From NCBI GenBank assembly GCA_965220745.1, contig CBDCQT010000011.1:334985-398984 (forward strand): a DNA stretch of 64,000 nucleotides, given 5' to 3'. Source of the DNA: Alphaproteobacteria bacterium (GTDB lineage: Bacteria > Pseudomonadota > Alphaproteobacteria > UBA828). Below the pieces are notes generated by a model, which worked only from the letters and a program-made list of their open reading frames with translations, was not told where the DNA came from and searched no databases. A program made the translations under genes and the position numbers. This document shows positions 5,581 to 31,335 of the stretch, one piece after another (within the stretch, counting starts at the first letter, position 1; each line of letters starts with the position of its first letter).

Positions 5581-6450
5581 TCAACCGATCCGGGCCATCA
5601 CCCCGCCGTCGACCGGGAGTGCGACGCCGGTGATGAAGCGGCCGGCGTCAGAGGCGAGGAAGAGCGAGGCCTGGGCCACGTCCCAGGCGCTGCCCATGCC
5701 GCCCCTGAGCGGGCTCCAGGTGTCGCGGTCGGCGGCGATCTCCTCGCGCGGCTTGCCGTAGCGGCGGGCCTGCGTGTCCACCGCCATGGGCGTGTCCATG
5801 TAGCCCGGCAGGATGGCGTTCACGCGCACACCGTCGGGCGCGCAGTCGAGCGCAAGCTGGCGGGAGAAGGCGATCATCCCTGCCTTGCTGGTCTTGTAGG
5901 TGACCGACTTGTAGTCGACCACGGCTGCAATCGACGAGATGTTGGTGATCACGCCGCTGCCCTGGCCGCGCATGACCGGGACCACGTGCTTGCAGGCCAT
6001 CACCGTGCCGCGCAGGTTGATCGCCATCACCCGGTCGAAGCTCGCCTCGTCGAGGTCCGCGAGCGGCGAATCCCCGCCGGTGTAAGCGACGCCCACGTTG
6101 TTCTGCAGCACGTCGATGCGCCCGTGCCGCTCGACGACCGAGCGGACGACAGCGAGCAGCGCCTGCTCATCGGTCACGTCGGCGACCATCGCCTCGGCGG
6201 CACCGCCTTCCGCCTGGATCATGGTGGCAGTTTCCTCGGCGGACTTCCGGTCGCGGTCGAGTGCGACCACGTGCGCGCCGGCGCGGGCGAAGAGCACGCA
6301 GGCGGCCCGGCCGTTGCCGATCACCGGCCCCGGCGTCTGGCCGGCGCCGGCCACGATCGCGACCCGGCCATCGAGGCTCAGTGAGGGGCTTTGCCAGGGC
6401 GCCGCGATGGCGGCGGAAGCCTCTTCGGTCATGGCGATGTCCTGGTGCAT
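5581..6450 (-). CDS. SDR family oxidoreductase
   Basis: VAIVAGAGQTPGPVIGNGRA Rossmann motif, NNVG, and the S...YKTSK catalytic pattern. Start could be 6432 (MTEEAS). Confidence 0.85.
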   Translation of the reverse strand: MHQDIAMTEEASAAIAAPWQSPSLSLDGRVAIVAGAGQTPGPVIGNGRAACVLFARAGAHVVALDRDRKSAEETATMIQAEGGAAEAMVADVTDEQALLAVVRSVVERHGRIDVLQNNVGVAYTGGDSPLADLDEASFDRVMAINLRGTVMACKHVVPVMRGQGSGVITNISSIAAVVDYKSVTYKTSKAGMIAFSRQLALDCAPDGVRVNAILPGYMDTPMAVDTQARRYGKPREEIAADRDTWSPLRGGMGSAWDVAQASLFLASDAGRFITGVALPVDGGVMARIG

Positions 6451-6642
6451 GGTGGGCGGGTGCCCGAAGGCTCCGCAGGCGCGCGCGGCTTGTCAAGGCG
6501 GGTGGTTGCAAAGATGGGGTTCTGGACGAAGTTGTGTCAGCGTAGAGTCAGTGCCAAGAAAGCTAGATTTTGGGGACATACGCCTATGAGCCACAGCATG
6601 TCGTAGACACGCGATAAACTCCTGTTCCTGACAGCGGACTGT

Positions 6643-7233
6643 TTGCCGCGAACGAATGCTTGCCCGGCACGCAAATTGACTTATATATCAATAACTGATC
6701 AAATCCAGGCGCTGGTGAGAGACGGTCGCCTGCATCACATCGAGCCGGTTGATCCTAGCTTAGAGGTGAAGCGGGTCATGGTGGTGGCGAACGACGTTCA
6801 AGCATTGCTCGATGAACCATGGCCCAGTGACTGGCTGGAGCGGCGCGCAGGTAGCCTACGGGCCGACTTAGAGATGTTCGTTAGGGGGCAGGTCCTGAGC
6901 GTTTCAATGACACCCTATGGGCACAAGAAGGCGTATATGGGATTGTTGGACCCTCCGACGAGGGGAGTCTGGGAGATCAGGAGCCGCGATCCGAATCCAA
7001 GCTTGCGGGTCTTCGGGCATTTTGCAGATGTAAATCTGTTTGTAGCATTAGTTTGGCACCCTCGATCCGTCGAAGTCGATGGAAGATCACCTTTGGGCAG
7101 CGCGCGTGATCTGAGCTGGGAGTTCGCAAAATTGGAATGTGAAAAAGCTTGGCAAGGTCTGTTTCCAAATCACCGGCCGCGAATCAGGGAGAAAGTCAGT
7201 GACTTCATCTCAGAAGATGCAATTCTGGTCTGA
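6643..7233 (+). CDS. hypothetical protein with weak RelE/HigB/Gp49-like core (low-GC island gene 1)
   Basis: The segment GVWEIRSRDPNPSLRVFGHFADVNLFVALVWH resembles the conserved strands of RelE/Gp49 toxins. TTG start at 6643; alternative ATG at 6778 preceded by GAGGTG. Confidence 0.5.
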   Translation: MPRTNACPARKLTYISITDQIQALVRDGRLHHIEPVDPSLEVKRVMVVANDVQALLDEPWPSDWLERRAGSLRADLEMFVRGQVLSVSMTPYGHKKAYMGLLDPPTRGVWEIRSRDPNPSLRVFGHFADVNLFVALVWHPRSVEVDGRSPLGSARDLSWEFAKLECEKAWQGLFPNHRPRIREKVSDFISEDAILV

Positions 7234-7642
7234 AATCGAGGATCTGGAAGCTCGTATACCGAAGGGTAAACTGGAGTATTTGCGCGAGCGGTTCCGCAAC
7301 GATTTGTACGACTTTATTCTCAGAAAGTATTTGGAGCAGAGGAAAGGGCGGAACCTTAATCAAGCTGAACTGGCGCGAAGGCTGTCCTATGATCCCGCCC
7401 GGCTCAATCGGCTGTTAGGCGCTCCCGGCAATTGGACACTAGCGACGGTGAGCGATTTGCTCGTGGGAATTGCTGGTGAGTCCTTGGACCTTCAATCGAC
7501 CGCGGTTCGGGGAAATACTGTGCGGAATCAAAATGTGCACGACCTGCTACAGTCGGGGGCGGGTTTGACTATAGAGAGGCATGATGCCGGATCGACAGGG
7601 ACAGGCAGCGTACGCACCATTAGAACGGTGCATGTTCAATGA
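7217..7642 (+). CDS. XRE-family helix-turn-helix protein (low-GC island gene 2)
   Basis: LNQAELARRLSYDPARLNRLLGAPGNWTLATVSDLL is an XRE-type HTH. ATG at 7217 overlaps the gene 1 end by 17 nt. Confidence 0.6.
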   Translation: MQFWSEIEDLEARIPKGKLEYLRERFRNDLYDFILRKYLEQRKGRNLNQAELARRLSYDPARLNRLLGAPGNWTLATVSDLLVGIAGESLDLQSTAVRGNTVRNQNVHDLLQSGAGLTIERHDAGSTGTGSVRTIRTVHVQ

Positions 7643-8061
7643 CTGAAAACGCTGTGCCGAAGGTGGAAATCCTCTCTGCCATCGTGTGCGACGATGTGCG
7701 GGAAGAGCATAACGGTAAGGAAATTCTAATTGGAGTGTATAGCGGTACAATAGCCGTTCAAGAAATTCCAAGTCCACCTTTACCATTAAGATGTTGGGTT
7801 AATCTCAGGATTCAAAGCTCGAGTAAAGTAAGGCTATACTTTAGAGCACGGGATCATGACAACAATGAGATTTTTCAGGCACAATTGAAGACAGAGACGG
7901 ACGACGAGATAGGAATGGGAAGTGTTCCTTTGGGGCCTATCATGTATACGCTTAAAGAGCCAGAGGGAAGCCTAAGGATCGACTATAAGGAGGGAGACGG
8001 CGATTGGTCCAACATTATTACAAAGAACGCAAGGTACCAAAGCAAGCAAACGTTGGGATAG
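7639..8061 (+). CDS. hypothetical protein (low-GC island gene 3)
   Basis: 140-aa ORF whose ATG shares ATGA with the stop of gene 2. No motif I can assign with confidence. Confidence 0.5.
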   Translation: MTENAVPKVEILSAIVCDDVREEHNGKEILIGVYSGTIAVQEIPSPPLPLRCWVNLRIQSSSKVRLYFRARDHDNNEIFQAQLKTETDDEIGMGSVPLGPIMYTLKEPEGSLRIDYKEGDGDWSNIITKNARYQSKQTLG

Positions 8062-8133
8062 TATTCGTTGCCGACTGGGTCATCGACATCGCGTTCAGAA
8101 CCCAATCCGACATCCCACGAGGAGCACACAGAG

Positions 8134-8970
8134 ATGAAAATCGGCGCCGTCATCTTCGCCACCGACTATTGCATCGCGCTGACCGAGCTCGCGCCTGCGC
8201 TTGAGGAGCGGGGGTTCGACTCGCTCTTCGTGCCCGAGCACACCCACATCCCCGCCAGCCGACGCTCGCCCTGGCGGGGCGGGGGAGAGCTGCCGCGGGA
8301 ATACTCCCACACGCTCGACCCCTTCGTGGGGCTGGCGGCAGCCGCGGCAGTCACCAGCACGCTCCGGCTCGGCACCGGCATCTGCCTGGTCACCGAGCGC
8401 GACCCCATCGTCACCGCGAAGGCGGTGGCGAGCCTCGATCTGGTCTCGGGCGGGCGCTTCGACTTCGGCATCGGCGCGGGCTGGAACGCCGAGGAGATGG
8501 AGCACCACGGCACCCGCTTCGAGACCCGTTTTCGGGTCATGGAGGACCGGGTCAAGGCGATGCAGGCACTCTGGGCTGCGGACGAGGCGAGCTACGAGGG
8601 CGAGTTCACGTCCTTCGAGCCGAGCTGGTCCTGGCCCAAGCCGGTGCAGAAGCCACATCCGCCGATCCTGCTCGGCGGAGAGTCCGTGCACACCATGCGC
8701 CGGATCATGGATTTCTGCTCGGGCTGGTTCCCGCGCGGCCCGCTTCTGCCCGATCCGGCCGAGGGCATGGGCAGGCTCCGCGCTGCCGCCGAAGAGGCCG
8801 GGCGCGATCCCGCGACTGTCTCCGCCACGGTCTTCGGTGCCAAGCCCGAAGCCGGCTATCTGGATGCTTGTCGGGAGGCCGGGATGGACCGTGCGCTACT
8901 GATCCTGCCGCCCGAAGGGCGCGACGGGGTGATGCCGGTCATCGACCGCTACGCGGCGCTCATCGGATAA
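8134..8970 (+). CDS. LLM-class (luciferase-like) flavin/F420-dependent oxidoreductase
   Basis: MKIGAVIFATDY...FDSLFVPEHTHIP...GTGICLVTERDP...GRFDFGIGAGWN pattern. ATG at 8134 preceded by GGAG. Confidence 0.85.
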   Translation: MKIGAVIFATDYCIALTELAPALEERGFDSLFVPEHTHIPASRRSPWRGGGELPREYSHTLDPFVGLAAAAAVTSTLRLGTGICLVTERDPIVTAKAVASLDLVSGGRFDFGIGAGWNAEEMEHHGTRFETRFRVMEDRVKAMQALWAADEASYEGEFTSFEPSWSWPKPVQKPHPPILLGGESVHTMRRIMDFCSGWFPRGPLLPDPAEGMGRLRAAAEEAGRDPATVSATVFGAKPEAGYLDACREAGMDRALLILPPEGRDGVMPVIDRYAALIG

Positions 8971-10444
8971 GCAGGCGCCGCCCGAGGTGGGCCGGAGTCA
9001 ACGAGCGAAAAGCCTCTCTCGCAGCCTCGGCGCCGAGCGCGCCCCAAAGCGCGCCACCGAGCACGGCCCCTCCAAGCGCGCCCCATGGCTTCCGTTCCGC
9101 AAGCGGCTGCACAGCCCCGCGCCTGCCCTTGACACGGACCTTGAAGGATTCGGCCGGCGCGGGCACGGGGAACTGCGTGGTCTTCAGGTTGTAGGCGGCC
9201 CGGTCGAGGTCGAGGTCAACCTCGTGCAGGATGGTCGCCATGGTGACGGCGATCTGCACCTCGGCGAAGCCGTTGCCGAGGCAGCGATGGGGGCCGAGGC
9301 CGAAGGGCGCGTAGACGTAGGGCTGCTTGTGCTCCGCACGCTCCGGCGTGTAGCGGTCGATGTCGAAGCGCTCGGGTTCGGGGAAGTATTCCGGCAAGTA
9401 GTGGGGAACGGCGGTGGCGATGATCAACCGCTCGCCGGCGGGAATGCGATGGCCTGCGAACTCGAACGAGTTGGCGGCGGTGCGGATGAGCATCGGGGTC
9501 ACTGGATACATCCGCATGGTTTCCATGGCCGCGCGGTGCGTCGCGTCCATCTCGCGTAGCGCCTGCTCGGCCGGCATGTCGCCGTTGAGGAGGGCGTCGG
9601 CCTCCTCCCGCACCTTCGCCAGCACGTCCGGGTTGCGCAGCAGCGCATACAGCATGAAGGCGGTGGTGCCTGCCACCGTGTCCAGCGCCGCGACGAAGGG
9701 GCCCATCGCCGCGATCTTCAGGTCCGCCTCGGGAAAGAACTTCGGGTCGGCGTCGTGCAAGTCCAGCAGGTCGTCGATCAGGTCCGGCTCCGCACCGTGC
9801 CGCTCCCGCATGGCGCCGGTGTGGCACTCGATCACCTCGTGGTAGAGCTTGTCCACGCGTGCCGAGGCGCGGCGGAAGCGCGGCGACCAGCGCATATAGG
9901 TGCCGGGGACCAGGGTGGCCGAGAGCAGCCCGTGAACGTAGCGGACCAGGTCGTCGTTGTAGGGGCGGGGCGAAACGCCGGCCACCAGGGTGCCCACCTG
10001 GTCGGTGACGATCCGCTGCAGCGCCGGCACCGCGGGCATGGACCGCGAGAGCGGCCACGTCGCGATCTCCCGGCGAGCGATGTCGACCAGGCCGTCGATG
10101 TGCTCCACGGCGTACTCGCGGGAATAGCCCCGCCGTAACGTCCGGCGAAATGCCGCGTGCTCGGGCCCGTCGGAGCTCAGCGTCGACCGCGCTGCGCCGA
10201 ACCAGGCGTTGAAGCCGCTCCAGAACTCGAACGAGCGAACGTGCTTCGTGCCCTCGCGCGCGAGGAAGCGGTTGGCCTCCATCCCGGCCAGCACGGTGAA
10301 GCGACGGTTGAGCAGCCGCATACCGTAGACCGGCCCGAGTTCCAGGTAGCTGTCGGTCATGAAGGCGCGTATGTCGCGCGCCATGTCGAAGACGCTGCCA
10401 ACAACCGGCAGGCCGCGCGCGAACGGTATCGTCGAGGACGCCAT
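8960..10444 (-). CDS. cytochrome P450 with C-terminal hydrophobic Gly-rich tail
   Basis: Heme-binding loop FGLGPHRCLGNGFA and an ETMR (ExxR) motif. ATG at 10444 (MASSTIPFARGLPVVG). Confidence 0.9.
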   Translation of the reverse strand: MASSTIPFARGLPVVGSVFDMARDIRAFMTDSYLELGPVYGMRLLNRRFTVLAGMEANRFLAREGTKHVRSFEFWSGFNAWFGAARSTLSSDGPEHAAFRRTLRRGYSREYAVEHIDGLVDIARREIATWPLSRSMPAVPALQRIVTDQVGTLVAGVSPRPYNDDLVRYVHGLLSATLVPGTYMRWSPRFRRASARVDKLYHEVIECHTGAMRERHGAEPDLIDDLLDLHDADPKFFPEADLKIAAMGPFVAALDTVAGTTAFMLYALLRNPDVLAKVREEADALLNGDMPAEQALREMDATHRAAMETMRMYPVTPMLIRTAANSFEFAGHRIPAGERLIIATAVPHYLPEYFPEPERFDIDRYTPERAEHKQPYVYAPFGLGPHRCLGNGFAEVQIAVTMATILHEVDLDLDRAAYNLKTTQFPVPAPAESFKVRVKGRRGAVQPLAERKPWGALGGAVLGGALWGALGAEAAREAFRSLTPAHLGRRLLIR

Positions 10445-10715
10445 CTCCCAGCCCTCTGCGGTCGTGCCCCTGCCCCTTGTCCCGCGGGGCGGGCGGGCTA
10501 CAGGGTGCCGCCGCCTGCTCCTATCATGGGGTGGGTGACGACCGAATACCAGCACTTCCGCTATGTCGGAAGGCGCGCTCCGGTGTGCCGCCGGCGGGCG
10601 AACCGAGTGGCGCGAGAACTCGGGCTATTCTGGCTTGTCGCTGCCTCTGTCCAGACTGTTCGGGGGTGCTCCGCCCGTGCTATAGGCGCGCGCCGACTTC
10701 AGGGAGAGAAATACG

Positions 10716-11054
10716 ATGGACGTGACGGTCGAGCGGCAGGAGAGCGTGTTGGTCGCCCGCGTGAACGGGCGGATCGATCCCAAAGGCGCCGGGTCGCTGG
10801 AGACGACGATCACGGCGGCGCTCCAGAATGGCGACCATGCCATCATCCTGGACTTCGAGCAGCTCACCTATATTGGCAACGTCGGCGTTCGGGCGCTGCG
10901 GATCACCGCCAGGGTCCTGCGCGACCGAGACGTCCGCATGGCCGTCTGCGCACCGCAGGGTGTCGTCGCCGCGGTCTTCTCAGGCGGCGGCGTGGACAGG
11001 CTCATCGCGGTCTACCAGACCAGGGCCGCGGCGCTCGAGGCCCTCGACGACTGA
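10716..11054 (+). CDS. STAS-domain protein (anti-sigma-factor antagonist-like)
   Basis: 112 aa, SpoIIAA-like layout: VLVARVNGRID...IILDFEQLTYIGNVGVRAL...AVCAPQGVV. Confidence 0.8.
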   Translation: MDVTVERQESVLVARVNGRIDPKGAGSLETTITAALQNGDHAIILDFEQLTYIGNVGVRALRITARVLRDRDVRMAVCAPQGVVAAVFSGGGVDRLIAVYQTRAAALEALDD

Positions 11055-11279
11055 CAAGGGGCTGCGTTCTTCGCGGCCGTCCGCCACAGCGACGGGGAGG
11101 ATGGCCGCCGAATTGCAGACCCTCTGGTATGCCACTCGCGCATATGTGACTGCCCGCGGGGTTGGCACGCGCTATGATCGTTCGTATCGTTCCGCCCCGT
11201 CCGGTTGCAGGGACCGGGCGAGGACATGAGATTTCCCACGGGGGCCCAGAGCGGTGCCCGCCCTCCCAGGGGGTAGAGA

Positions 11280-11492
11280 GTGGACGCGGCACGTATCGTC
11301 ATCGAGGTCCTGCAGTACTACGGCTATGTCGGGCTCGCCGTCACGGCCGCGTTTCTGCTCTATGGCATCGAGCGGGTGGATGAGGGCGCGCGGCGCTCCT
11401 ACGCCTTCCGGCCGCTCCTGATCCCCGGCTGCATCGTGCTCTGGCCGCTGGTGATTTGCCGCTGGGTCGCGGCGGAACGGCAGCGCGGCTGA
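11280..11492 (+). CDS. small membrane protein (2 predicted TM helices)
   Basis: 70-aa ORF with hydrophobic segments YYGYVGLAVTAAFLLYGI and LLIPGCIVLWPLVIC. First gene of a tightly packed same-strand cluster. Confidence 0.45.
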   Translation: MDAARIVIEVLQYYGYVGLAVTAAFLLYGIERVDEGARRSYAFRPLLIPGCIVLWPLVICRWVAAERQRG

Positions 11493-11505
11493 GCGGGCTC
11501 TCGCC

Positions 11506-11685
11506 ATGCAGCGCCGCCACCGCACCACCCACGCCTACATGTGGAAGGTGCTTGCCATCTTTTTGCCCGCGATGCTGATCGCGGCGCTCGCCATTCGCCA
11601 GCACGGGCCGATGGAGAAATCCGCCGTCCAGATCGAAAAGCCCGCGGCCGAAACCGAAGCGCCCGCCGCCACGGCGGACGAGTAA
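11506..11685 (+). CDS. small membrane protein (59 aa, below ORF-track cutoff)
   Basis: Hand translation: MQRRHRTTHAYMWKVLAIFLPAMLIAALAIRQHGPMEKSAVQIEKPAAETEAPAATADE. One TM helix. Fills the gap between neighbours. Confidence 0.35.
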   Translation: MQRRHRTTHAYMWKVLAIFLPAMLIAALAIRQHGPMEKSAVQIEKPAAETEAPAATADE

Positions 11686-11700
11686 GGGGGCGGCTGAGCG

Positions 11701-12783
11701 ATGAGCGTGCGTTACGCGCCGGTCGGCTGGAACCGCAACAAGATCATCTACGACGTCGTGGTGCTCGCCGCCGCCGTCGCCTACATCCTGCTCTACATCA
11801 AGATCGCGCCGGGCTTCCAGGACGTCACCAAGCCGACCAGCGGGGCGATCCTGCGGGCGCAGGCCTTCGGTACCTGTGCCTTCCTGATGCTCACCTTCAT
11901 CCTCTGCATCGGGCCGCTCACACGCCTGGATGCGCGCTTCCTGCCGCTGCTCTACAACCGTCGCCACTTCGGCGTGATCACGTGCGCCATCGCGTTTACG
12001 CACGCCACCCACGTGGTCAGCATCTATTACTCGTTCAGCCCGCTGAACAAGTACGTCGCGGTGCTGGCGAGCAACACGAGCTACGACCGCTTCCTCGGCT
12101 TCCCGTTCGAGACCTTCGGCATCTTCGCGCTCTTCCTGTTGTTGGTGCTCGCGGCCACGAGCCACGACTTCTGGCTCAAGTTCCTGACACCGCCGATCTG
12201 GAAGGCGATCCACATCTCGGTCTACGTCGCCTATGCGGCGATCGTCTGCCATGTGGCGCTCGGCTCCCTGCAGTCGAAGCAGAGCCCGCTGCTCGCGGTC
12301 ATCGTGGGCTTGAGCGTGGTGGCGGTCACCGGCCTCCACCTTGTCGCCGGGCGTATCGAGCGGCAGAAGGACCGGAATACCGCCGAGGATGCGGCCGGGA
12401 GTACCGACGAGGCGCCCTGGGTCGTCGCCGGCGACGTGGAGTCGGTGCCCGACGGCCGCGGCATCGTCGTGCCGCTGGAGGACGGCGAACGCGTTGCGGT
12501 GTTCCGTTATGGTGACAAGCTCTCTGCGCTCGCGAATGTCTGCGCCCATCAGAACGGCCCGCTCGGCGAAGGGCGCATCATGGACGGTTGCGTGACCTGC
12601 CCGTGGCACGGTTTCCACTACCGGCCCGAGGACGGCTGCGCGCCGCCGCCCTTCACCGAGAAGGTCGCGACCTATCGGCTCAAGCTCGATGGCCGGCGGA
12701 TCCTGCTCGATCCCCGACCAAACGAGCCCGGCACCTATGTCGAGCCCGTGCGCGTCGCTCCCCCGAGCGTGACGGAGGCGTAA
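11701..12783 (+). CDS. ferric-reductase-like (MsrQ/YedZ-type, di-heme b) transmembrane domain fused to a C-terminal Rieske [2Fe-2S] domain
   Basis: Six hydrophobic helices with conserved His (RRHFGV..H..H; SHDFW..WKAIH..Y), then Rieske ligands CAHQNGPL ... CPWHGFHY. Confidence 0.8.
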   Translation: MSVRYAPVGWNRNKIIYDVVVLAAAVAYILLYIKIAPGFQDVTKPTSGAILRAQAFGTCAFLMLTFILCIGPLTRLDARFLPLLYNRRHFGVITCAIAFTHATHVVSIYYSFSPLNKYVAVLASNTSYDRFLGFPFETFGIFALFLLLVLAATSHDFWLKFLTPPIWKAIHISVYVAYAAIVCHVALGSLQSKQSPLLAVIVGLSVVAVTGLHLVAGRIERQKDRNTAEDAAGSTDEAPWVVAGDVESVPDGRGIVVPLEDGERVAVFRYGDKLSALANVCAHQNGPLGEGRIMDGCVTCPWHGFHYRPEDGCAPPPFTEKVATYRLKLDGRRILLDPRPNEPGTYVEPVRVAPPSVTEA

Positions 12784-12784
12784 G

Positions 12785-13573
12785 ATGGCAGGCAGGGCGC
12801 GTGATCCCGGTTTCTTCGTCGGCTACCTGAACAGCGTGCCGCGCCCGCTCGCGATCTTCCTGGTGGTCGGTGCTGCCGCGCTCGTCGGCGGCATGGCTGG
12901 GCTGGCCTTCGCGCTCGGCACCAACGTGAACGACCCCGGCGACGGCACGTTCGCCCGCAAGCTCGGCAAGCAGGAGATGACCGGGGTCCTGCTGGAGAAG
13001 CCCTATCCGATCCTGCGCGTCCGCCCGGACGCGAAAAATCCCGAAGCGCGCACGGTGATGCTCACCGTGCCCGGCAAGCGCAGTGTCAAGCGGCGCGGCC
13101 GCAAGCTCTTCGATCAGCTCGTCGACGTGAAGGGCTTCATGTTCCAGCGCGGCGACATCGACATGCTGCAGGTCCAGGGCAAGGGCGCGTTGAAGGCGGT
13201 GGAGGTCGCCGAAGGCGAGCCGCCACCCGAATTCACCCCGGCGCCCGCCGAATCCCTCGGCCGCTGGCGCCTCATCGGCGAGATCTGCGACAGCAAGTGC
13301 CATCTGGGCGCCATGCGGCCGGGCGACGGGCTCGCGCACAAGGCCTGCGCCAACCTTTGCATCTCCTCCGGCGCACCGCCGATCTTCGTCACGGCGGAGG
13401 AAGGCGCGGTCGAGGGCGAGACCTTCCTGCTGATGGCCGATCAGGACGGCGGGCCGCTCCCCGACCATTTCGGCGACTACGTGGCGATCCTCATTCAGCT
13501 CGAAGGCGAGGTCGAACGGCTCGACGATCTGCTGGTTTTCAAGGTCGATATCGACGCGGCCAAGGTGTTCTGA
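12785..13573 (+). CDS. membrane-anchored hypothetical protein with four-Cys motif
   Basis: N-terminal TM helix LAIFLVVGAAALVGGMAGLAFAL, later CDSKCHLGAMRPGDGLAHKACANLC. Start is 2 nt after the previous stop. Confidence 0.6.
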   Translation: MAGRARDPGFFVGYLNSVPRPLAIFLVVGAAALVGGMAGLAFALGTNVNDPGDGTFARKLGKQEMTGVLLEKPYPILRVRPDAKNPEARTVMLTVPGKRSVKRRGRKLFDQLVDVKGFMFQRGDIDMLQVQGKGALKAVEVAEGEPPPEFTPAPAESLGRWRLIGEICDSKCHLGAMRPGDGLAHKACANLCISSGAPPIFVTAEEGAVEGETFLLMADQDGGPLPDHFGDYVAILIQLEGEVERLDDLLVFKVDIDAAKVF

Positions 13574-13576
13574 GCG

Positions 13577-13828
13577 ATGAAGCGTGTCGCCTGGATCATA
13601 GCCGGCGCGATCGTGACCGCCGGCCTCGGCTACGCCTCCTACTGGGTCTATCTGGAGGTGCAGCAGCAGGTTCGCGGCACGCTCATTTCAGGCTTCGGCA
13701 TCTTCGTCGGCGTCATGGGTGCCTTCGCCATGCTCGGCGTGGCCCACATCGTCTTCACCTACGCCGAGCGCCTGCTGTGCAAGCGCAAGACGCCCCCGGC
13801 CGAAGACAAGACTCCAGAGGGCGCGTGA
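13577..13828 (+). CDS. small membrane protein (2 TM helices)
   Basis: 83 aa, VAWIIAGAIVTAGLGYASYWVY and ISGFGIFVGVMGAFAMLGVAHIVF. Start is 4 nt after the previous stop. Confidence 0.5.
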   Translation: MKRVAWIIAGAIVTAGLGYASYWVYLEVQQQVRGTLISGFGIFVGVMGAFAMLGVAHIVFTYAERLLCKRKTPPAEDKTPEGA

Positions 13829-13881
13829 CGATCGAATAGACGCGGCACGCGAGCCGTTCAGTGGCGGGAGGCAGGGTCCCC

Positions 13882-15492
13882 ATGAACAAGATCGCGATCA
13901 AGACGCTCGACGAGTTGGAAGACCGACAGCCGGCCTATGCGCTGGTCGGAGACATCGATCTTTGCTTGGTTCGCTACGACGACAATGTCTCGGTCTTCTA
14001 CGGCCGCTGCCTGCACCGGGGCGCGCTCATGGCCGACGGCTACGTCGACGGTGAGAACCTGATCTGCGGCGTCCACTATTGGGACTACCGCCTCGATACC
14101 GGCGTCAGCGAATACAACAACGAAGAAATCCTGCCCAAGTTCGCCTCGTGGATCGAAGACGGCCAGGTCCTGGTCGATGCGGACGAGATCGGCGCCTGGG
14201 AGGAGGACCACCCGCAGCCCTTCAAGCGGGACGAGTACCTCGGCCTCTACGCCGACACCCACCCCGCAGCCGAGGAGCCCCACGTCGGGCTGATCCAGGG
14301 CTACGCCAGGGACGGCCTCAGCAAGACCGGCCATCACGGCGTCGTGGTGGCCATGGGCGTGCCGCGCCAGGACCTGCCGAGCTGGGACGACATTCAATTC
14401 ATCACGGCGCAACTCCACCGCATGCCGCACCTGGATGACGAGCCGGTCGGCACCGAGGTGGTGATCGGGCCCAACGCCCAAAAACCGCTCACCCTCGAGA
14501 TTCCGCTCCTCGTCTCGGACATGAGTTTCGGGGCGCTGTCGGAGCCAGCCAAGGTCTCACTCGCGCGCGGCGCCGAGCTTTCCGGCACCGGCATCTGCTC
14601 GGGCGAGGGCGGCATGCTGCCGGAGGAGCAGCAGGCCTGTAGCCGTTACTTCTACGAGTATGCCTCGGGCCGCTTCGGTTTTTCGTGGGACAAGCTTGAG
14701 AACGTGCAGGCCTTCCACTTCAAGGGCGGCCAGGGCGCCAAGACCGGCACCGGCGGTCACCTGCCGGGAAACAAGGTGAGGGGCAAGATCGCCGAGGTGC
14801 GGGGGCTGCCGGAAGGCTCGCCGGCGGTCTCGCCGCCGCGCTTCCCCGACTGGACCGACTGGCGCCAGGTGAGGGATTTCGCCGACGAGGTGCGGAGTCA
14901 CACCGGCGGCATCCCGATCGGCTACAAGCTCTCGGCCCAGCACATCGAAAAGGACATCGACGCCGCGCTTGAGGTGGGGGTCGATTACATCATCCTGGAC
15001 GGCCGGGGCGGCGGCACGGGCGCTGCGCCGCTCATCTTCCGCGACAACATCTCGGTGCCGACCATCCCGGCGCTCGCACGGGCGCGCCGCCATCTCGACG
15101 CATCGGAGCGCGAGGACGTGACGCTGGTGATCACGGGCGGCCTGCGCAAGCCCGCCGATTTCGCCAAGGCGCTGGCGCTGGGCGCGGATGCGGTCGCGGT
15201 CTCCAACGCCGCGATCCAGGCGATCGGCTGCCTCGGCATGCGCGCCTGCCACACCAACAACTGCCCGGTCGGTATCGCGACCCAGAAGCCGAGTCTGACC
15301 GCGCGGATCGAGGTCGAGAAGTCGGCGCGGCGCCTTGCCAACTTCTTCGAGGCGAGCGTCGAGCTGATGAAGATCATGGCGCGTGCCTGTGGGCATTCGC
15401 ACCTGAACCAGCTCGCGCTCGACGATCTCGAGACCTGGAAAGAGGATATGGCGCGGCTGTCGGGCGTCGCCTACGGCGGCGTCGGCGGCTGA
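13882..15492 (+). CDS. Rieske [2Fe-2S] domain fused to a glutamate-synthase-like FMN/[3Fe-4S] domain
   Basis: N-terminal CLHRGALM ... CGVHYWDY Rieske ligands. GltB-type core FKGGQGAKTGTGGHLPG, ILDGRGGGTGAAP and the cluster motif CLGMRACHTNNCPVGIATQ. ATG at 13882 after GGAGG. Confidence 0.85.
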   Translation: MNKIAIKTLDELEDRQPAYALVGDIDLCLVRYDDNVSVFYGRCLHRGALMADGYVDGENLICGVHYWDYRLDTGVSEYNNEEILPKFASWIEDGQVLVDADEIGAWEEDHPQPFKRDEYLGLYADTHPAAEEPHVGLIQGYARDGLSKTGHHGVVVAMGVPRQDLPSWDDIQFITAQLHRMPHLDDEPVGTEVVIGPNAQKPLTLEIPLLVSDMSFGALSEPAKVSLARGAELSGTGICSGEGGMLPEEQQACSRYFYEYASGRFGFSWDKLENVQAFHFKGGQGAKTGTGGHLPGNKVRGKIAEVRGLPEGSPAVSPPRFPDWTDWRQVRDFADEVRSHTGGIPIGYKLSAQHIEKDIDAALEVGVDYIILDGRGGGTGAAPLIFRDNISVPTIPALARARRHLDASEREDVTLVITGGLRKPADFAKALALGADAVAVSNAAIQAIGCLGMRACHTNNCPVGIATQKPSLTARIEVEKSARRLANFFEASVELMKIMARACGHSHLNQLALDDLETWKEDMARLSGVAYGGVGG

Positions 15493-15645: not shown

Positions 15646-16704
15646 CTAGAGGCTTTTCGCAAACTCTTTGTTTGCAGCCGGTATCTCGGGAACGGTCCCC
15701 AGGTAGGCGTGGCGGGACATGTCCGGCGAGTGCTTGCTCGCCGGCGGCTGGCGGCCGAGCGCTTCCGCCATGCTGCGGATGTGGTGGGGGGCCGCGCCGC
15801 AGCAGACCCCGAGGTAGCCGACGCCGAGCGCCTGCGCCTCTCTGGTGAACTCCGCGATCTCGTAGCGGTTGCAGGCGAGGTTATCGAGCCCGGTGGGGAA
15901 GGCGCGTCCCTCGGGCAGGCAGGCGCAGCCAGGATCGCTGAGGGAGAGGAAGGTCGGCTCGTCCTCGGTGGTGCGATAGGCCACCGGCAGCGCGGAGACG
16001 TGGCAGCTCACCGCTTCGTGGATCGGGCCCAGCAACGGCAGCATGGTCGCGGGGCCGCGCACGCAGTTGAGGCCGACCACGTCGGCGCCCGCGTCCTCCA
16101 GGCGCTTGCAGGCTTCGGCCGGGGTCAGTCCCTCGCGGGTGTGCGGGTCGCGGAAGATGGCGAGGTTGATCACCGCCGGCAGCCCGGTCTCCTTGATCGC
16201 TTCGAGCGCGAGCAGGGCCTCGCCCACGTGGCTGATGGTCTCGGCGACGAAGAAGTCCACGCCCTCATCGACGGCCCAGCCCACCTGCTCATCGAACATG
16301 GCGCGCACAGTCCGCGCGGACTCGGGATCGCCTTCGACGAAGATGTTGGAATTGCTGACGTTGCCGGCGACCAGGGCATTGCCTTCCTCCGCGACCGCCC
16401 GCGCAAGGCGGACCGCGGTGCGGTTCATTGGCTCAAGCTGGTCCTCCTTGCCGATCAGCCTGAGCTTCTCGCGATGGGCGTAATAGGTGAAGGCCAGCAT
16501 GACGTCCGAGCCCGCGTGCAGGAATTCGCGATGCAGCTGGATTACGGCGTCAGGATGTTCCAGCACTGCTTCGGGCACGTAGGCGCCGGCGGTGAGATAG
16601 CCGCGGCGCTCGATCTCGAACAGATAGCCCTCGGCGCAAATGACGGGTCCTGCCGCCAGCCATTCGAGCAGACCCGATCCGATAGGCGGAGCAGCGCGGG
16701 TCAT
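15646..16704 (-). CDS. betaine-homocysteine S-methyltransferase family protein (paralog 1)
   Basis: 352 aa from ATG at 16704 (MTRAAPPIG). Pfam S-methyl_trans-like features, with Zn ligands in VGLNCVRG and GVCCGAAPHHI. Confidence 0.85.
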   Translation of the reverse strand: MTRAAPPIGSGLLEWLAAGPVICAEGYLFEIERRGYLTAGAYVPEAVLEHPDAVIQLHREFLHAGSDVMLAFTYYAHREKLRLIGKEDQLEPMNRTAVRLARAVAEEGNALVAGNVSNSNIFVEGDPESARTVRAMFDEQVGWAVDEGVDFFVAETISHVGEALLALEAIKETGLPAVINLAIFRDPHTREGLTPAEACKRLEDAGADVVGLNCVRGPATMLPLLGPIHEAVSCHVSALPVAYRTTEDEPTFLSLSDPGCACLPEGRAFPTGLDNLACNRYEIAEFTREAQALGVGYLGVCCGAAPHHIRSMAEALGRQPPASKHSPDMSRHAYLGTVPEIPAANKEFAKSL

Positions 16705-16763
16705 TGAGGTGATCTCCTTGTTCGCGAAGGCCGCGGCCGGGGGCCGCGCGCGGGTGACAAGTG

Positions 16764-17822
16764 CTACAGGTTCTTCGCAAAATCCTTGTACACAGACGGG
16801 ACCTTGTCCGAGGTGCCGTAGAAGGCGTGCGTGGACATGTCGGGCGAATACTTGCTCCCCGGCGGGCGGCGGCCGAGCGCCTCCGCCATGCTGCGGATGT
16901 GGTGGGGGGACGTGCCGCAGCAAACGCCGAGATAGTTGACGCCGAGCGCCTGCGCCTTCTTGGTGAACTCCTCGATCTCGTAGCGGTTGACGGTGAAAGG
17001 ATCGAGCGCGGTGGGAAAAGGCTTCTCCCGCGGCAGGCAGGCGCAATCGGGATCCTCCAGGGACTGGAAGGTGGGCTGGTCGGCGGTGGTGCGGTAGGCC
17101 ACCGGCAGCGCCGCCACGTGACAACTGACGGCCTCGCAAATGGGGCCGAGCAGCGGCAGCATGGAGGCCGGACCGCGCGCGCAGTTGAGCCCGACCACGT
17201 CGGCGCCCGCGTCTTCCAGGCGCTTTGCCGCTTCGGCCAAGCTCAATCCGTCCCGTGTGTGCGGGTCGCGGTGGACCGCGAGGTTGATTACCGCCGTCTG
17301 GTCGGCCGCCTTGATCGCTTCGAGCGCGAGCAGGGCCTCGCCGACGAAGGAGATGGTCTCGGCGACGATATAGTCCACACCCTCGTCGACGGCCCATTCC
17401 ACCTGCTCGTCGAACATCGCGCGCACCTCGCGTGCGGACTCGGCGTCGCCCTCAACATAGATGTTGGAGTTGGACACATTGCCGGCGACCAGCGCGTCGC
17501 TCCCGGCCGCGGCCTCGCGCGCGAGGCGCAGCGCGGTGCGGTTCAGCTCCTCGAGCGCGTCCTCCTTACCGATCACACGGAGCTTCTCGCGGTGGGCGTA
17601 GTAGGTGAAGGCGAGCATGACGTCGGAGCCCGCGTACAGGAAGTCGCGGTGCAATTGGGCTACGACCTCCGGGTGATCCAGCACCGCTTCCGGCACGTAG
17701 GCCCCGGCGGAGAGATAGCCGCGGCGCTCGATTTCGAACAGATAGCCTTCGGCGCAGATGACGGGCCCTGCCGCCAGCCGCTCAAGTAGGTCCGCTCCGC
17801 TCGATACTGCGGCGTCAGTCAT
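16764..17822 (-). CDS. betaine-homocysteine S-methyltransferase family protein (paralog 2)
   Basis: 352 aa, ungapped alignment to paralog 1 with about 80 differences. VGLNCARG and GVCCGTSPHHI. Confidence 0.85.
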   Translation of the reverse strand: MTDAAVSSGADLLERLAAGPVICAEGYLFEIERRGYLSAGAYVPEAVLDHPEVVAQLHRDFLYAGSDVMLAFTYYAHREKLRVIGKEDALEELNRTALRLAREAAAGSDALVAGNVSNSNIYVEGDAESAREVRAMFDEQVEWAVDEGVDYIVAETISFVGEALLALEAIKAADQTAVINLAVHRDPHTRDGLSLAEAAKRLEDAGADVVGLNCARGPASMLPLLGPICEAVSCHVAALPVAYRTTADQPTFQSLEDPDCACLPREKPFPTALDPFTVNRYEIEEFTKKAQALGVNYLGVCCGTSPHHIRSMAEALGRRPPGSKYSPDMSTHAFYGTSDKVPSVYKDFAKNL

Positions 17823-27937: not shown

Positions 27938-28360
27938 GTGATGGCGGACAAGGTGGTGAAGACGGATGCGGAATGGCGCGCGGCGCTGACCGAGGAACAG
28001 TACTACGTCACCCGAATGGGAGGCACCGAGCGGCCTTTCACGGGTGCCTACTGCGACGAGAAGACGCCGGGCGAGTATGCCTGCGTCTGCTGCGGCGCCG
28101 CCCTCTTCAGCTCCGGCGACAAGTTCGATTCAGGCACCGGCTGGCCGAGCTTCACGAGGCCGGTCGATCCGGGGAACGTCGGCTCGGTGGAGGACATGAG
28201 CTACGGGATGCGCCGGACCGAGGTGGTGTGCAGCCGGTGCGGCGCCCATCTCGGCCACGTCTTCCCCGACGGGCCGGCGCCCACGGGCTTGCGCTACTGC
28301 ATGAACTCCGCCGCGCTCGTGCTTACACCCAAGGACGACGGCGGGGCGGGAGGGACTTAG
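27938..28360 (+). CDS. msrB: peptide-methionine (R)-S-oxide reductase
   Basis: CVCCG...GWPSF...[12 protein letters not shown]...RYCMNS, the MsrB Zn and catalytic motifs. Confidence 0.9.
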
Positions 28361-28372
28361 CCAAGCCGGGAC

Positions 28373-29299
28373 TCAGGCGTCTCTCGACGACGCGGTCTCC
28401 CGCACGATTCCCCGGAAGCGCCCGAACGGCGACAGGTCGTCGGAGGAGCGCCGCGACACCATTCCGGTGCGGTGACGATACGTGCCGAACGTCACCGGCA
28501 GGGGCTTGAGTGGATGTCCGGGCAAACGCTCCAGGAAGGTCAGCGACAGCCAGGAGAGGTAGGGGCCTGCTGCCATCAGGAACAGTCCGGCGGAACCGGC
28601 GCGTGTGACGGTCTTCACCCGCTGGCCGGTTCTCTCATAGAGCTGGTCGAGGACTCCGGCCAGCGAAGGCCGACCGTTGGCGGCGTCCGCCCGCATGGGT
28701 GCATCGAAGTCGATCCACGGGTATTGGACAAGCGCGTCATCGCTCACCGTTCCGGAATGGAGCGGATGGTCCTTGTGGGCGACGATGCCCCACGTCATGT
28801 CGATGAAGCGTTCGCTCTTGAGGAACTGCGGCAAGGGTTCGTTGCTGTTGATGCCGCCGCAGTGAATGTCGCTATCGCCGTTGGCCAGGAGGCGAACACC
28901 CTCGGTCATCGGAAGGGTCTTCAGCTTGAGTTCCACGCCGGGGCAGGTCTCGTGGAACTTGGCGATCGCATCGGGAAGCACGGCCCGCATCCACATGGGG
29001 CCAGCCGTGACGCGCAAGCTGCCAGTGCGGCCCGCGAGGGTCGCGGTGATCTTCTCTTCGGCAGCTTCGATTTCGTAGAGGATATGGCGTGCCAGATCCG
29101 CGACGACGGCGCCGAGCGGCGTGAGCCGAACGCCCGTGGACATGCGGTCGAACAGCCGGCCTCCGAACTGGCGCTCGAGCCGTGCGACCACGCGCGAGAG
29201 GGCGGGTTGCGTGATGCCGAGCTTGTCGGCGGCGGAGAGGATGGCGCCTGTCTCGGCAACGGCAAGGAACTTGATCAGATCGTTGCGCTTCTCAAACAT
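28373..29299 (-). CDS. LysR family transcriptional regulator
   Basis: ATG at 29299. HTH region FLAVAETGAILSAADKLGITQPALSRVVARLE. Confidence 0.85.
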   Translation of the reverse strand: MFEKRNDLIKFLAVAETGAILSAADKLGITQPALSRVVARLERQFGGRLFDRMSTGVRLTPLGAVVADLARHILYEIEAAEEKITATLAGRTGSLRVTAGPMWMRAVLPDAIAKFHETCPGVELKLKTLPMTEGVRLLANGDSDIHCGGINSNEPLPQFLKSERFIDMTWGIVAHKDHPLHSGTVSDDALVQYPWIDFDAPMRADAANGRPSLAGVLDQLYERTGQRVKTVTRAGSAGLFLMAAGPYLSWLSLTFLERLPGHPLKPLPVTFGTYRHRTGMVSRRSSDDLSPFGRFRGIVRETASSRDA

Positions 29300-29385
29300 C
29301 TGTGGTCCGCGTCCTTCGCGAATTATCTGCACATAACTCACCTATGCATGTGGCAGCGATGGCAAAATGCGTCCAGAAAGGAATT

Positions 29386-29763
29386 CTAACACTCTCGATA
29401 AGAAGCTCTTATGAATTTGCCTGAAGTTGCGGACATCTGGTTTGGGTGTATTCGCATAATAATGATCGAGTCCTTGAATTTCTGCATCGATAATGTCAGT
29501 CGAACAAATGGCATGACGACTTGGTAGGTTGGCAAATCTGATTTGCGTGTCATTGCATAATCCATTGCAATTACGTTATTTTTGACAACGACGTTCGGAA
29601 GTGGGGAGGAGGAATTCGACAGCTTCCGTGGCCTCCCGGGATCGACCTCGTAGAAATGTTTATGGCCTTGAGCGTCAGAGATAGCTCGAGAAATATTCAT
29701 GATAACGGGCACATGGTGAGCGACTTCCGAAATCAAAACGTTGCTACTATGCACATCAGGCAT
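29386..29763 (-). CDS. orphan hypothetical ORF in an AT-rich patch
   Basis: 125-aa ORF. Sampled line 29521-29580 is 22/60 G+C. No recognisable motif, so it may not be a real gene. Confidence 0.3.
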   Translation of the reverse strand: MPDVHSSNVLISEVAHHVPVIMNISRAISDAQGHKHFYEVDPGRPRKLSNSSSPLPNVVVKNNVIAMDYAMTRKSDLPTYQVVMPFVRLTLSMQKFKDSIIIMRIHPNQMSATSGKFIRASYREC

Positions 29764-29931
29764 GTGCTTTTCTTAAGGGTGCATCCCACACATATCAACG
29801 GGGTGGTGCGCTTCTCGCCGGGCCCGCGCAAGTATCATCTTGCATTGCACGTCGCCGACTTGGTGAAGATCCGGCGGCGGAGTCTCGCGAGGGTAACCGG
29901 CAAAGAGCGGCGCGCCGCACCGCGGTGCGTT

Positions 29932-30861
29932 CTACTCCTCGTCCTGGGACGACGCACTTTGCTCCAAGAGCGAGAGACAGAGCCGTGCGATGGGTCTGAC
30001 GCGACCCTGGTCCGTGAGCGCGGCGCAAAAGTGATTGTCGCGTTCGATATAACCATCGCCGAGTGCGACCAGGGCGCCGGTTTCGAGATGCTGATCGACG
30101 AAGTTTTTCCAGCCGAGCGCGATGCCCTGCCCTTCGACGGCCGCCTCAAGCGAATAGACGTAATTGTCAAAGCTCACGAACCGAGGCGAGGGCTCGGGGC
30201 GCCCAGCGGCTTGAAACCAGTCCTCCCACGACGCCCAGTTCTCACTAGCGCTGCCAGGTTCGAGAAACGAGAGACCACTCCAGCCGCTCACGGGGCCATT
30301 CAGCGTATCCGAATGGGTTGCAGCGTATTCGGGGGCACAGACCGGCCTCACCGCTTCCGCAAAAAGCACCACTGCGCTGTCCCCTCGAATGGTGGCCTCC
30401 CAGTCCAAAACCACGTCGGGCACCGAATCGAGTGGCAGGTTCTGCGAGTAACGATGAAAAATTACGGTTTGTATTTGAGTGCGCTCGCCGAGTGCTTCGC
30501 GAAGCGCATTGTGTCGCGGTCTCAGCACGTAGTGCGACACCGGGTTAGAGCACGCGATCACCACTCGTTCGCCCGATGAGGCCTCGGCGATCTCGGAGGT
30601 GGCCTTGTCGATCATACCGAGCGCAGGGGCGACGCCTGTATGGAAGCGCCGTCCGGCTTCGGTCAGCTTCACTCCGGTTCGGGATCGTTCGAACAGCTTG
30701 GCACCATTCTTCTCTTCGAGGTTTGCGATATGGCGACTAATTGCAGGTTGCGATGTGCCCAGCTCCTTGGCCGCTCCGGCGAAACTTCCGGTCCGTGCGG
30801 CGCATTCGAAGGCGATGAGGGCCGCCGTCGGTGGAATTCGATAGGGGCTGGACTTAGCCAT
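29932..30861 (-). CDS. LysR family transcriptional regulator (GcvA-like)
   Basis: ATG at 30861. HTH region FECAARTGSFAGAAKELGTSQPAISRHIANLE. Confidence 0.85.
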   Translation of the reverse strand: MAKSSPYRIPPTAALIAFECAARTGSFAGAAKELGTSQPAISRHIANLEEKNGAKLFERSRTGVKLTEAGRRFHTGVAPALGMIDKATSEIAEASSGERVVIACSNPVSHYVLRPRHNALREALGERTQIQTVIFHRYSQNLPLDSVPDVVLDWEATIRGDSAVVLFAEAVRPVCAPEYAATHSDTLNGPVSGWSGLSFLEPGSASENWASWEDWFQAAGRPEPSPRFVSFDNYVYSLEAAVEGQGIALGWKNFVDQHLETGALVALGDGYIERDNHFCAALTDQGRVRPIARLCLSLLEQSASSQDEE

Positions 30862-31019
30862 AACGTAATTGATACAAGCATAATCCAAGAATCGCAACGC
30901 ACTTTGGGAAGGCTATGCTTGGGGAGATCAAATATATAACTAAAAATTATATACATACTCGAAGAAGAGAGCCTGTTAAAGATGCTGAAATACATAGTAA
31001 TATAACTTAAGTGAATGCA

Positions 31020-31286: not shown

Positions 31287-31335
31287 CCTGCGCCGAGACC
31301 CTTTCTCTCACAGCGGTCGCGGCGATAAGTCTGGG

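Follow-up and report, generated by a model that had tools for sequence, protein, structure and literature searches.

What does a compact set of membrane and redox genes, two of which encode different Rieske fusions, do for an alphaproteobacterium, and which of its members belong together? The set lies at positions 11,280 to 15,492 of a 64,000-nucleotide stretch of contig CBDCQT010000011.1 (Alphaproteobacteria bacterium, assembly GCA_965220745.1), and this whole stretch is referred to below as the window. Its six genes are designated g1 to g6: g3 encodes a ferric-reductase-domain (FRD) protein with a C-terminal Rieske domain, g4 a membrane-anchored protein, g6 a Rieske domain joined to a flavin mononucleotide (FMN) domain of the glutamate synthase (GltS) type, and g1, g2, and g5 small membrane proteins (Table 1). 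The original prediction, made from the letters of the DNA, had read these genes as a self-contained electron wire running from FMN through 3Fe-4S, Rieske, Rieske, and heme b across the membrane. The order of the centers is supported by conserved ligands in g3 and g6, but the wire is not self-contained, as its final acceptor is missing from the gene set. The reading we favor, at slightly better than even probability, is that a membrane module exports electrons from Rieske-tagged cytoplasmic flavoenzymes across the membrane to g4, which is predicted to lie in the periplasm.

In the path that we propose, a cytoplasmic flavoenzyme would oxidize its substrate at the flavin and release the electrons singly to the Rieske cluster of the same protein, in g6 by way of the 3Fe-4S cluster. 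They would then move to the Rieske cluster of g3, the inner heme b, and the outer heme b, and from there to a site in g4 made up of three Cys, one His, and one Met (Cys3-His-Met), at which a periplasmic acceptor would be reduced. g1, g2, and g5 would be small membrane subunits of the fixed module. The donor would be exchangeable, being of the GltS type here and, in relatives, a pyruvate oxidase (POX)-like thiamine pyrophosphate/flavin adenine dinucleotide (TPP/FAD) enzyme or an FMN_red-type enzyme instead or in addition. On such a path, the FMN domain of g6 would run oxidatively on a glutamate-like substrate.

The conserved module and its Rieske-tagged partners

A genome search anchored on g4 returned 80 loci, and a metagenome search anchored on distant g4 relatives returned 80 more, which are 29-54% identical to the first sequence of that alignment; the comparison covered 166 related loci in total. 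The system is carried by many Alphaproteobacteria and found in soil, freshwater, and mat metagenomes. Where 81 loci were scanned gene by gene, g3 and g4 were adjacent in every one, g1 was present in 79, and g2 in 67 in spite of its tiny size, and it is clear from the adjacency of g3 and g4 and the recurrence of g1 that g1 to g6 are real genes rather than chance open reading frames (ORFs). The distant metagenome loci follow the same order, with an FRD-Rieske gene directly before g4 and g1 before that wherever upstream DNA exists. g5 diverges fast and was detected by tblastn in 25 of the 81 loci; all relatives inspected have a small gene called immediately behind g4, and in most of the listed loci its product is a small two-helix protein.

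The order of the core genes is kept from 98% to about 30% protein identity, gene overlaps of 4 nt occur in relatives, and four independent cluster representatives (P0421, P0475, P0479, and P0498) are single-polypeptide fusions of FRD-Rieske and g4. Together, the conserved order, the small gaps and overlaps, and the natural fusions argue that the conserved unit is a five-gene membrane module, g1 to g5, and that within it g3 and g4 almost certainly form a complex. When all ORFs of at least 90 aa from the 166 loci were clustered, g4 was recovered in 162 loci, g3 in 148, Rieske-GltS proteins in 61, and Rieske-POX proteins in 32, and no other widely recurring family emerged. The original prediction had treated all six genes as the conserved unit, which has to be amended: the neighborhood comparison bears out co-conservation of g1 to g5, whereas g6 is facultative and moves, switches strand, or is missing nearby.

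A Rieske-GltS gene lies within 7 kb of the module in 53 of the 80 genome loci, in changing positions. It is downstream of the module in 13 loci, all of the window's own clade, immediately upstream in 14, upstream with another gene between in 21, upstream together with a pyruvate-oxidase-like gene on the opposite strand in 3, and itself on the opposite strand in 2. The six-gene arrangement that includes g6 appears to be a clade-specific version of a broader system. At Roseibium-type loci, the product of the intervening gene (658 aa) has a Rieske domain at its N-terminus and, after it, TPP_enzyme_N, M, and C domains; among NCBIfam models it is closest to pyruvate oxidase and PoxB, and it stays below every equivalog cut-off. 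Because the PoxB match stops at position 530 of the 574 in the model, this enzyme is predicted to lack the C-terminal membrane-binding peptide. Rieske-POX genes occur in about 27 of the 80 genome loci and none is present in the window; in Roseovarius the gene order is GltS-small-g3-g4-small-POX, with POX after g5. A third combination, Rieske plus FMN_red (the NAD(P)H-dependent FMN reductase fold), was found at five loci, of which four are distant and one has the gene directly after an FRD-Rieske-g4 fusion.

As judged from domain content, every recurrent donor-like neighbor has an N-terminal Rieske domain, carried by three unrelated flavoenzyme classes, and g6 would belong to a set of at least three Rieske-tagged enzymes that can replace one another. 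Neither g6 nor the other Rieske-tagged partners have signal peptides or membrane helices. The idea that these N-terminal Rieske domains form a clade of shared docking tags is not clearly supported; the Rieske domains of the POX-like and FMN_red partners are closer to that of g3 than the g6 Rieske domain is, with modest scores.

These same surveys bear on the simplest objection, namely that the genes are chance neighbors, or share transcription only, and have no common redox function. g6 is indeed not always adjacent to the module and stands alone in at least one genome, and the genes flanking the module vary between lineages. Retention of the core order over so wide a range of identity, the existence of fusions, and the presence of the same kind of N-terminal Rieske domain on three unrelated enzyme classes make this explanation extremely improbable. 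The solitary case is a Methyloligellaceae genome whose module (L019) has no nearby donor and whose lone Rieske-GltS gene lies elsewhere (L087, 4104-9617), directly downstream of a helix-turn-helix (HTH) regulator. Just past that regulator, on the opposite strand and two genes from Rieske-GltS, are genes for an asparaginase and a Na+/alanine symporter, which may hint at an amino acid as the substrate.

As for g6 itself, Pfam finds a Rieske domain at residues 12-82 (40.2 bits) and a Glu_synthase domain (PF01645) at residues 202-511 (299 bits), and its more than 8,000 relatives are named only "glutamate synthase-related protein." Across 10 diverse Rieske-GltS proteins, the Rieske ligands C43, H45, C62, and H65 and the 3Fe-4S triad C450, C456, and C461 are invariant. 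The protein aligns with the FMN domain of solved glutamate synthases at an E value of 6e-34, with the triad matching C-x5-C-x4-C-P. K287, nearly invariant in the family, and R307, which is invariant, align with Lys972 and Arg992 of the Synechocystis ferredoxin-dependent glutamate synthase, residues that we take to be 2-oxoglutarate contacts, and Gln978 of that enzyme is replaced by His. Pfam found no glutaminase, central, or GXGXG domain in g6, and against the GltB large-subunit equivalog NF008730 it scores 125 bits, the cut-off being 1047; no NCBIfam equivalog cut-off is reached by any of the six genes. g6 is accordingly a relative of glutamate synthase rather than a glutamate synthase itself; its active site may still accept a similar substrate, and our guess is a glutamate-like amino acid or a 2-oxo-dicarboxylate.

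The predicted di-heme protein g3 and its probable partner g4

Residues 57-181 of g3 match Ferric_reduct (PF01794) with 44.3 bits, well above the cut-off of 28, and residues 240-325 match Rieske (PF00355) with 50.5 bits. In 21 aligned sequences, the two pairs of heme-ligand His, H89/H101 in transmembrane helix (TM) 3 and H171/H184 in TM5, are invariant, with spacings of 12 and 13 residues, as are the Rieske ligands C281, H283, C300, and H303; H155, H213, and a TSHDFW motif are also invariant. The profile match, the six hydrophobic segments, and the two His pairs in TM3 and TM5 are the marks of the FRD superfamily. According to a survey of that superfamily, the presence of all four His is the sign of a two-heme form, and short forms of the YedZ kind usually retain only two or three (PMC3591440). 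g3 is predicted to place two b hemes across the membrane.

The hydropathy scan gave 2, 1, 6, 1, and 2 membrane helices for g1 to g5, respectively, and none that is credible in g6. For g3, the side predicted to face inward has 12 Lys and Arg residues and the outward side 6, and there is no twin-arginine motif before TM6. We infer that the N-terminus and the Rieske domain of g3 face the cytoplasm, because an even number of helices follows an inside N-terminus, the charge is biased accordingly, the twin-arginine motif is absent, and canonical FRD topology has this orientation. Both Rieske domains, in g3 and in g6, have the ferredoxin/NirD-type motif, without the extra disulfide Cys residues of high-potential Rieske proteins.

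The g4 family comprises 1,943 clusters at 50% identity, 811 of them with an E value below 1e-30, and is annotated only as hypothetical. The AlphaFold2 model of g4 (mean predicted local distance difference test [pLDDT] 85 for the whole and 90 for the C-terminal domain) has one helix and two beta-barrels. Foldseek searches of the PDB with the whole and C-terminal models gave nothing significant, the best matches being OB folds at E values of 0.045-0.1, and a profile search of PDB sequences gave nothing below an E value of 0.08. Relaxed Pfam scans yielded only sub-threshold matches of DUF5818 to both barrels, and no likeness in fold or profile was found to known periplasmic copper or thiol proteins (Sco, CusF, PCuAC, and thioredoxin-like proteins). 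g1, g2, and g5, like g4, have no Pfam or NCBIfam match, and none of these four proteins can be assigned to a described family.

What the g4 family does keep is a site. The pattern D-x-[KR]-C-x2-G-x-M-x-PG-x4-H-x2-C-x3-C is present in 239 of 247 family members, and the family-wide core of the site consists of C172, M177, H185, C188, and C192. In the model, it lies in a loop and helix between strands of the second barrel; H185, C188, and C192 are all in the helix formed by residues 183-194 and, given helical periodicity, should share one face of it. A heme c site, at which the CDSKCH motif had seemed to hint, was rejected: the motif is CX3CH rather than CXXCH, and neither its first Cys nor its His is conserved, C168 being present in 154 of the 247 members and H173 mostly replaced by Tyr. 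Export by the twin-arginine translocation (Tat) pathway and a periplasmic Fe-S cluster were likewise rejected as family properties. A Tat-like motif (RRx followed by two hydrophobic residues) occurs in only 7 of the 247 members, with none in the window's g4 and RRF before the helix in a few relatives, so that the domain would have to be exported unfolded and the Cys3-His-Met site loaded outside the cytoplasm, which argues against an Fe-S cluster. The alternatives are a metal site filled in the periplasm, a heme b site, and a redox-active thiol center, with copper as the obvious candidate metal for this set of ligands.

The g4 barrels would lie in the periplasm, opposite the Rieske domain of g3. 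This placement follows from the FRD-Rieske-g4 fusions, in which the g4 helix comes straight after the Rieske domain, and from the charges flanking the helix, which is preceded by a basic stretch and followed by an acidic DPGDG flank. The suggestion that the Cys-motif protein is a partner on the other side of the membrane fits both this predicted topology and the natural fusions.

Of the small proteins, g1 has conserved residues at G18, F25, G29, R32, F43-R44, P49-G50, W55-P56, and R61-W62, and g2 at R6, H9, W13, P21, and R31-Q32. The two are fused as one longer ORF in two loci (L044 and L056), and probably also in a third (L089, 9608-9973), which suggests that g1 and g2 act together.

Direction of electron flow and the final acceptor

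We infer that electrons flow from the cytoplasm to the membrane, because the partners of the pyruvate oxidase type and of the NAD(P)H:FMN reductase type release electrons. On this path, the Rieske domain of a donor would dock with that of g3. Both domains resemble dioxygenase ferredoxins and NirD-type proteins, and in ring-hydroxylating dioxygenase systems the hand-over of electrons between two low-potential Rieske clusters is an established reaction that provides a precedent. Those systems consist of soluble proteins, with a mononuclear-iron oxygenase as the end point, whereas the Rieske domain of g3 is fused to a membrane di-heme protein.

The opposite direction, in which a quinol or a periplasmic donor would feed the Rieske pair and, through it, a reductive cytoplasmic enzyme, with g6 performing a reductive amination like that of glutamate synthase, is very unlikely in our estimate. 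True glutamate synthases do use their 3Fe-4S cluster and FMN reductively, taking up electrons to reduce 2-iminoglutarate, and g6 keeps the triad and the aligned Lys and Arg. It is also the case that MsrQ-type proteins can draw on the respiratory chain (PMC5449189). However, the POX-like and NAD(P)H FMN reductase-like partners release rather than consume electrons, the low-potential-type Rieske motifs would require quinol electrons to travel uphill and against the membrane potential, and g6 is without the further domains of a glutamate synthase listed above.

A different destination for the same electrons is the quinone pool. Here, the module would be an anchor for respiratory dehydrogenases, with Rieske-tagged enzymes passing electrons through g3 to quinone, g1, g2, g4, and g5 serving as structural or assembly subunits, and g4 being no acceptor. 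PoxB and succinate dehydrogenase feed electrons to the quinone pool, and the POX-like partner descends from membrane enzymes that reduce ubiquinone, having lost the membrane-binding tail. The invariant TSHDFW motif and H213 of g3 could line a quinone site, and the title of a 2025 paper speaks of an unexpected ubiquinone cofactor in MsrQ, another FRD protein (PMC12525009). One locus (L090, 1066-4313) has a 623-aa FRD-Rieske-g4 fusion followed by a 442-aa NuoH/ND1-like protein (PF00146, 353 bits), but such a neighbor occurs at that locus only; the protein is a lone complex I subunit of the quinone site. A di-heme wire would not be needed to reduce ubiquinone on the cytoplasmic side, and would waste membrane potential, and no role would be left for the conserved Cys3-His-Met site of g4 or for the fusion of g4 to g3. 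We regard this explanation as unlikely, although it is the strongest of the competing ones.

If electrons are exported to g4, as we favor, the chemistry of the acceptor is a matter of guesswork, and our guess is a copper or thiol redox center serving periplasmic repair, defense, or metal reduction. Across the 166 loci, no neighbor that would reveal the acceptor recurs. In a soil and freshwater subclade, extracytoplasmic function (ECF) sigma factors are near the module in 14 loci, TANGO2-like proteins in 12, and an ATP-grasp-looking protein in 11, a context that suggests, by analogy, a stress or repair role like that of MsrPQ; none of the stress-type genes of this subclade is in the window. At one locus (L113, 3594-14227), g1 to g4 share a long same-strand cluster with genes for a penicillin-binding protein, a nitroreductase, DinB, an AhpC/TSA redoxin carrying a YHS domain, a TANGO2-like protein, Rieske-FMN_red, and a ~370-aa protein that is unannotated and ATP-grasp-looking. 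The module is embedded in a longer same-strand cluster at L102, L107, L136, L140, and L145 as well.

A special case of outward flow would be a periplasmic metal reductase, acting on cupric or ferric ions with g4 as the receiver of the metal or its chaperone. The FRD relatives FRE and STEAP reduce ferric and cupric ions (PMC3591440). Within g4, the Cys3-His-Met core, with H185, C188, and C192 on one helix face, resembles the ligand set of Cu(I) sites. Three Cys with a His and a Met are typical of soft-metal Cu(I) binding, and a redoxin with a YHS domain occurs in the one extended operon described above, with TonB/ExbBD and Znu genes near some loci. Such metal-related neighbors are sporadic, however, no metal transporter or chaperone gene recurs in the clustering of the 166 loci, and no known copper-protein fold matched g4, so we consider this case quite unlikely.

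Several points weigh against the export of electrons from Rieske-tagged enzymes to g4. The FMN domains of glutamate synthases normally work reductively. A quinone site may exist on the outer side of g3, and g4 then need not be the acceptor. Only the small gaps between the genes point to co-transcription of the cluster. Finally, 14 of the 80 genome loci have full flanks but no Rieske-tagged enzyme within 7 kb, and most of the distant metagenome loci also have none nearby, so that the donors may often be encoded elsewhere or may differ. The broader claim that the module represents a new family of membrane redox complexes, defined by a Rieske-Rieske junction, plug-in dehydrogenases, a di-heme wire, and an OB-like periplasmic redox center with a Cys3-His-Met site, is put forward only tentatively and may well prove wrong.

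Known relatives, genomic surroundings, and implications

The system closest in outline is MsrQ-MsrP with Fre (YedZ/YedY in Escherichia coli), in which a heme b FRD protein receives cytoplasmic electrons and serves an adjacent periplasmic partner (PMC5449189, PMC3591440). MsrQ differs in having no Rieske domain and usually three of the four heme-ligand His (PMC3591440). g3 scores 29.4 bits against the NCBIfam MsrQ equivalog, for which the cut-off is 130, and no molybdopterin oxidoreductase gene was seen in the window's cluster or in the annotated loci of relatives. The partner of MsrQ is a Tat-exported molybdoenzyme, whereas g3 is paired with an OB-like protein of the Sec type that is anchored in the membrane and carries a Cys3-His-Met site, and the donors to g3, unlike those to MsrQ, are Rieske-tagged. 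MsrQ and the flavin reductase Fre have reportedly been described as a NOX-like system of two components (Juillan-Binard 2017, cited in PMC5676040).

NOX, FRE, and the bacterial "long form" FRD proteins share with g3 the route from a flavin dehydrogenase through two b hemes, held by His pairs in TM3 and TM5, to an acceptor outside (PMC3591440). In NOX and FRE, an FAD/NADPH domain is fused to the FRD, whereas the C-terminal domain of g3 is a Rieske domain only, with no FAD or NAD(P)H domains; a Rieske pair forms the junction and the dehydrogenase is separate and exchangeable. The g3 system also adds the outer subunit g4 and three small subunits. Cytochromes bc1 and b6f likewise combine one Rieske cluster with two transmembrane b hemes, but the heme domain of g3 is of the FRD fold rather than cytochrome b, its Rieske domain has a low-potential-type motif and is predicted to be cytoplasmic, with no Tat motif for export, and no cytochrome c1 or f is present. 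g3 belongs to the FRD superfamily and is neither MsrQ, NOX, nor FRE.

Among the donors, g6 shares with the large subunit of glutamate synthase (1ea0, 1llw, and 7mfm) the TIM-barrel FMN domain, the Cys triad, and the Lys and Arg; it differs in having an N-terminal Rieske domain in place of the glutaminase, central, and GXGXG domains, in the absence of a beta subunit, and in the change of Gln978 to His. The second donor of relatives has the TPP_enzyme N, M, and C domains of PoxB, with an N-terminal Rieske domain and no C-terminal membrane-binding peptide. The pairing of an FRD with a Rieske domain was on record in 2013 solely as a combination of domains (model M4). Full-text literature searches yielded no description of the operon, of g4, or of the Rieske-tagged enzymes, in agreement with the original prediction, which knew of no characterized system of such a composition.

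At the level of gene calls, the six plus-strand ORFs of the original prediction were all recovered in the ORF list of the window, and the domains and Cys motifs it had named are present in Pfam matches and translations (CDSKCHLGAMRPGDGLAHKACANLC, CLGMRACHTNNC, and CAHQ...CPWHG). The intergenic gaps, given as 1 to 53 nt, were computed as 13, 15, 1, 3, and 32 nt; the value of 53 holds only if g6 starts at ATG 13882. That start is likelier than GTG 13861, because a GGGAGG box sits 10 nt 5' of it and the resulting 536 aa are typical of homologs. A scan of the plus strand found no credible terminator within the six-gene cluster. At 68% G+C, promoter and terminator scans are uninformative, and the promoter match in Table 1 is no evidence of function.

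Table 1. Positions in the window of the cluster genes, their motifs, and a weak promoter match
Feature	Position	Strand	Description
g1	11280..11492	+	70 aa, two membrane helices; first gene of the conserved core
g2	11506..11685	+	59 aa, one membrane helix, basic N-terminus (MQRRHRTTHAYMW)
g3	11701..12783	+	360 aa, six-helix FRD di-heme protein (predicted) with C-terminal Rieske [2Fe-2S] domain
Rieske domain of g3 (CAHQ...CPWHG)	12418..12675	+	From translation; predicted cytoplasmic
g4	12785..13573	+	262 aa, N-terminal anchor at about residues 20-46, two OB-like beta-barrels, predicted periplasmic
Conserved Cys/His/Met site of g4 (CDSKCHLGAMRPGDGLAHKACANLC)	13286..13360	+	From translation; invariant columns
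g5	13577..13828	+	83 aa, two membrane helices; last gene of the conserved core
g6 ORF	13861..15492	+	Opens at GTG 13861; 543 aa
g6 from ATG 13882	13882..15492	+	536 aa, Rieske and glutamate-synthase-type FMN/[3Fe-4S] domain, predicted cytoplasmic
[3Fe-4S]-type Cys triad of g6 (CLGMRACHTNNC)	15229..15264	+	From translation and alignment with glutamate synthase large subunits
Sigma-70-like promoter match	11162..11190	+	Weak and uncertain; in the 225-nt gap 5' of g1; 1 match, 0.4 expected by chance

The closest loci, at 88-98% identity, come from metagenome-assembled genomes labeled Alphaproteobacteria or Rhodospirillales, and one close homolog of g6 is filed under the sponge Geodia barretti; the source is an uncultured and probably sponge-associated alphaproteobacterium. 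Directly 3' of the cluster, on the minus strand, are tandem paralogs of homocysteine S-methyltransferase (PF02574; 15646-16704 and 16764-17822), a pair also found in a close relative (L001); the listed ORF at 15646-17397 is an over-extended frame. Just 5' of g1, at 8068-11054, lie genes for a luciferase-like monooxygenase (plus strand), a cytochrome P450 (minus strand), and a STAS anti-sigma-antagonist (plus strand). These were considered as members of the system and rejected, as only the closest clade retains them (STAS in 12 of 81 loci). The sole other Rieske protein of the window is the alpha subunit of a ring-hydroxylating oxygenase (42209-43324, minus strand), which is unrelated to the module and whose gene adjoins those for an AsnC-type regulator (43349-43873, minus strand) and a glutamine-synthetase-like protein (44058-45476, plus strand). 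The G+C content dips to 0.57 at 6001-8000 and to 0.58-0.61 at 28001-32000 against a background of ~0.68, and these two segments may have been acquired. No tRNA genes were found in the 64-kb window.

What is new here is the proposed Rieske-Rieske junction, the exchangeable donors, and the family of the periplasmic partner, whereas FRD-based transmembrane electron transfer as such is known. How FRD proteins export electrons is well established for the NADPH oxidases and ferric reductases of eukaryotes, and in bacteria MsrQ was the only characterized FRD member according to the 2013 survey (PMC3591440). If our reading is correct, the module would be a modular bacterial FRD system with swappable donors, in which soluble dehydrogenases are connected to a membrane wire in a new manner, through paired Rieske clusters. 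In marine lineages, we may speculate that GltS-like and POX-like donors work one after the other, the first converting an amino acid to a 2-oxoacid and the second converting that to an acid and CO2, which would deliver four electrons per molecule to the periplasmic acceptor. The module would also add a large family, that of g4, with about 1,900 clusters at 50% identity and a conserved outward-facing Cys/His/Met site, and give a first functional context to the very common Rieske proteins annotated as related to glutamate synthase. As cultivated strains of Roseibium, Pseudovibrio, Roseovarius, and Kiloniella carry the system, direct experimental access to it should be possible.

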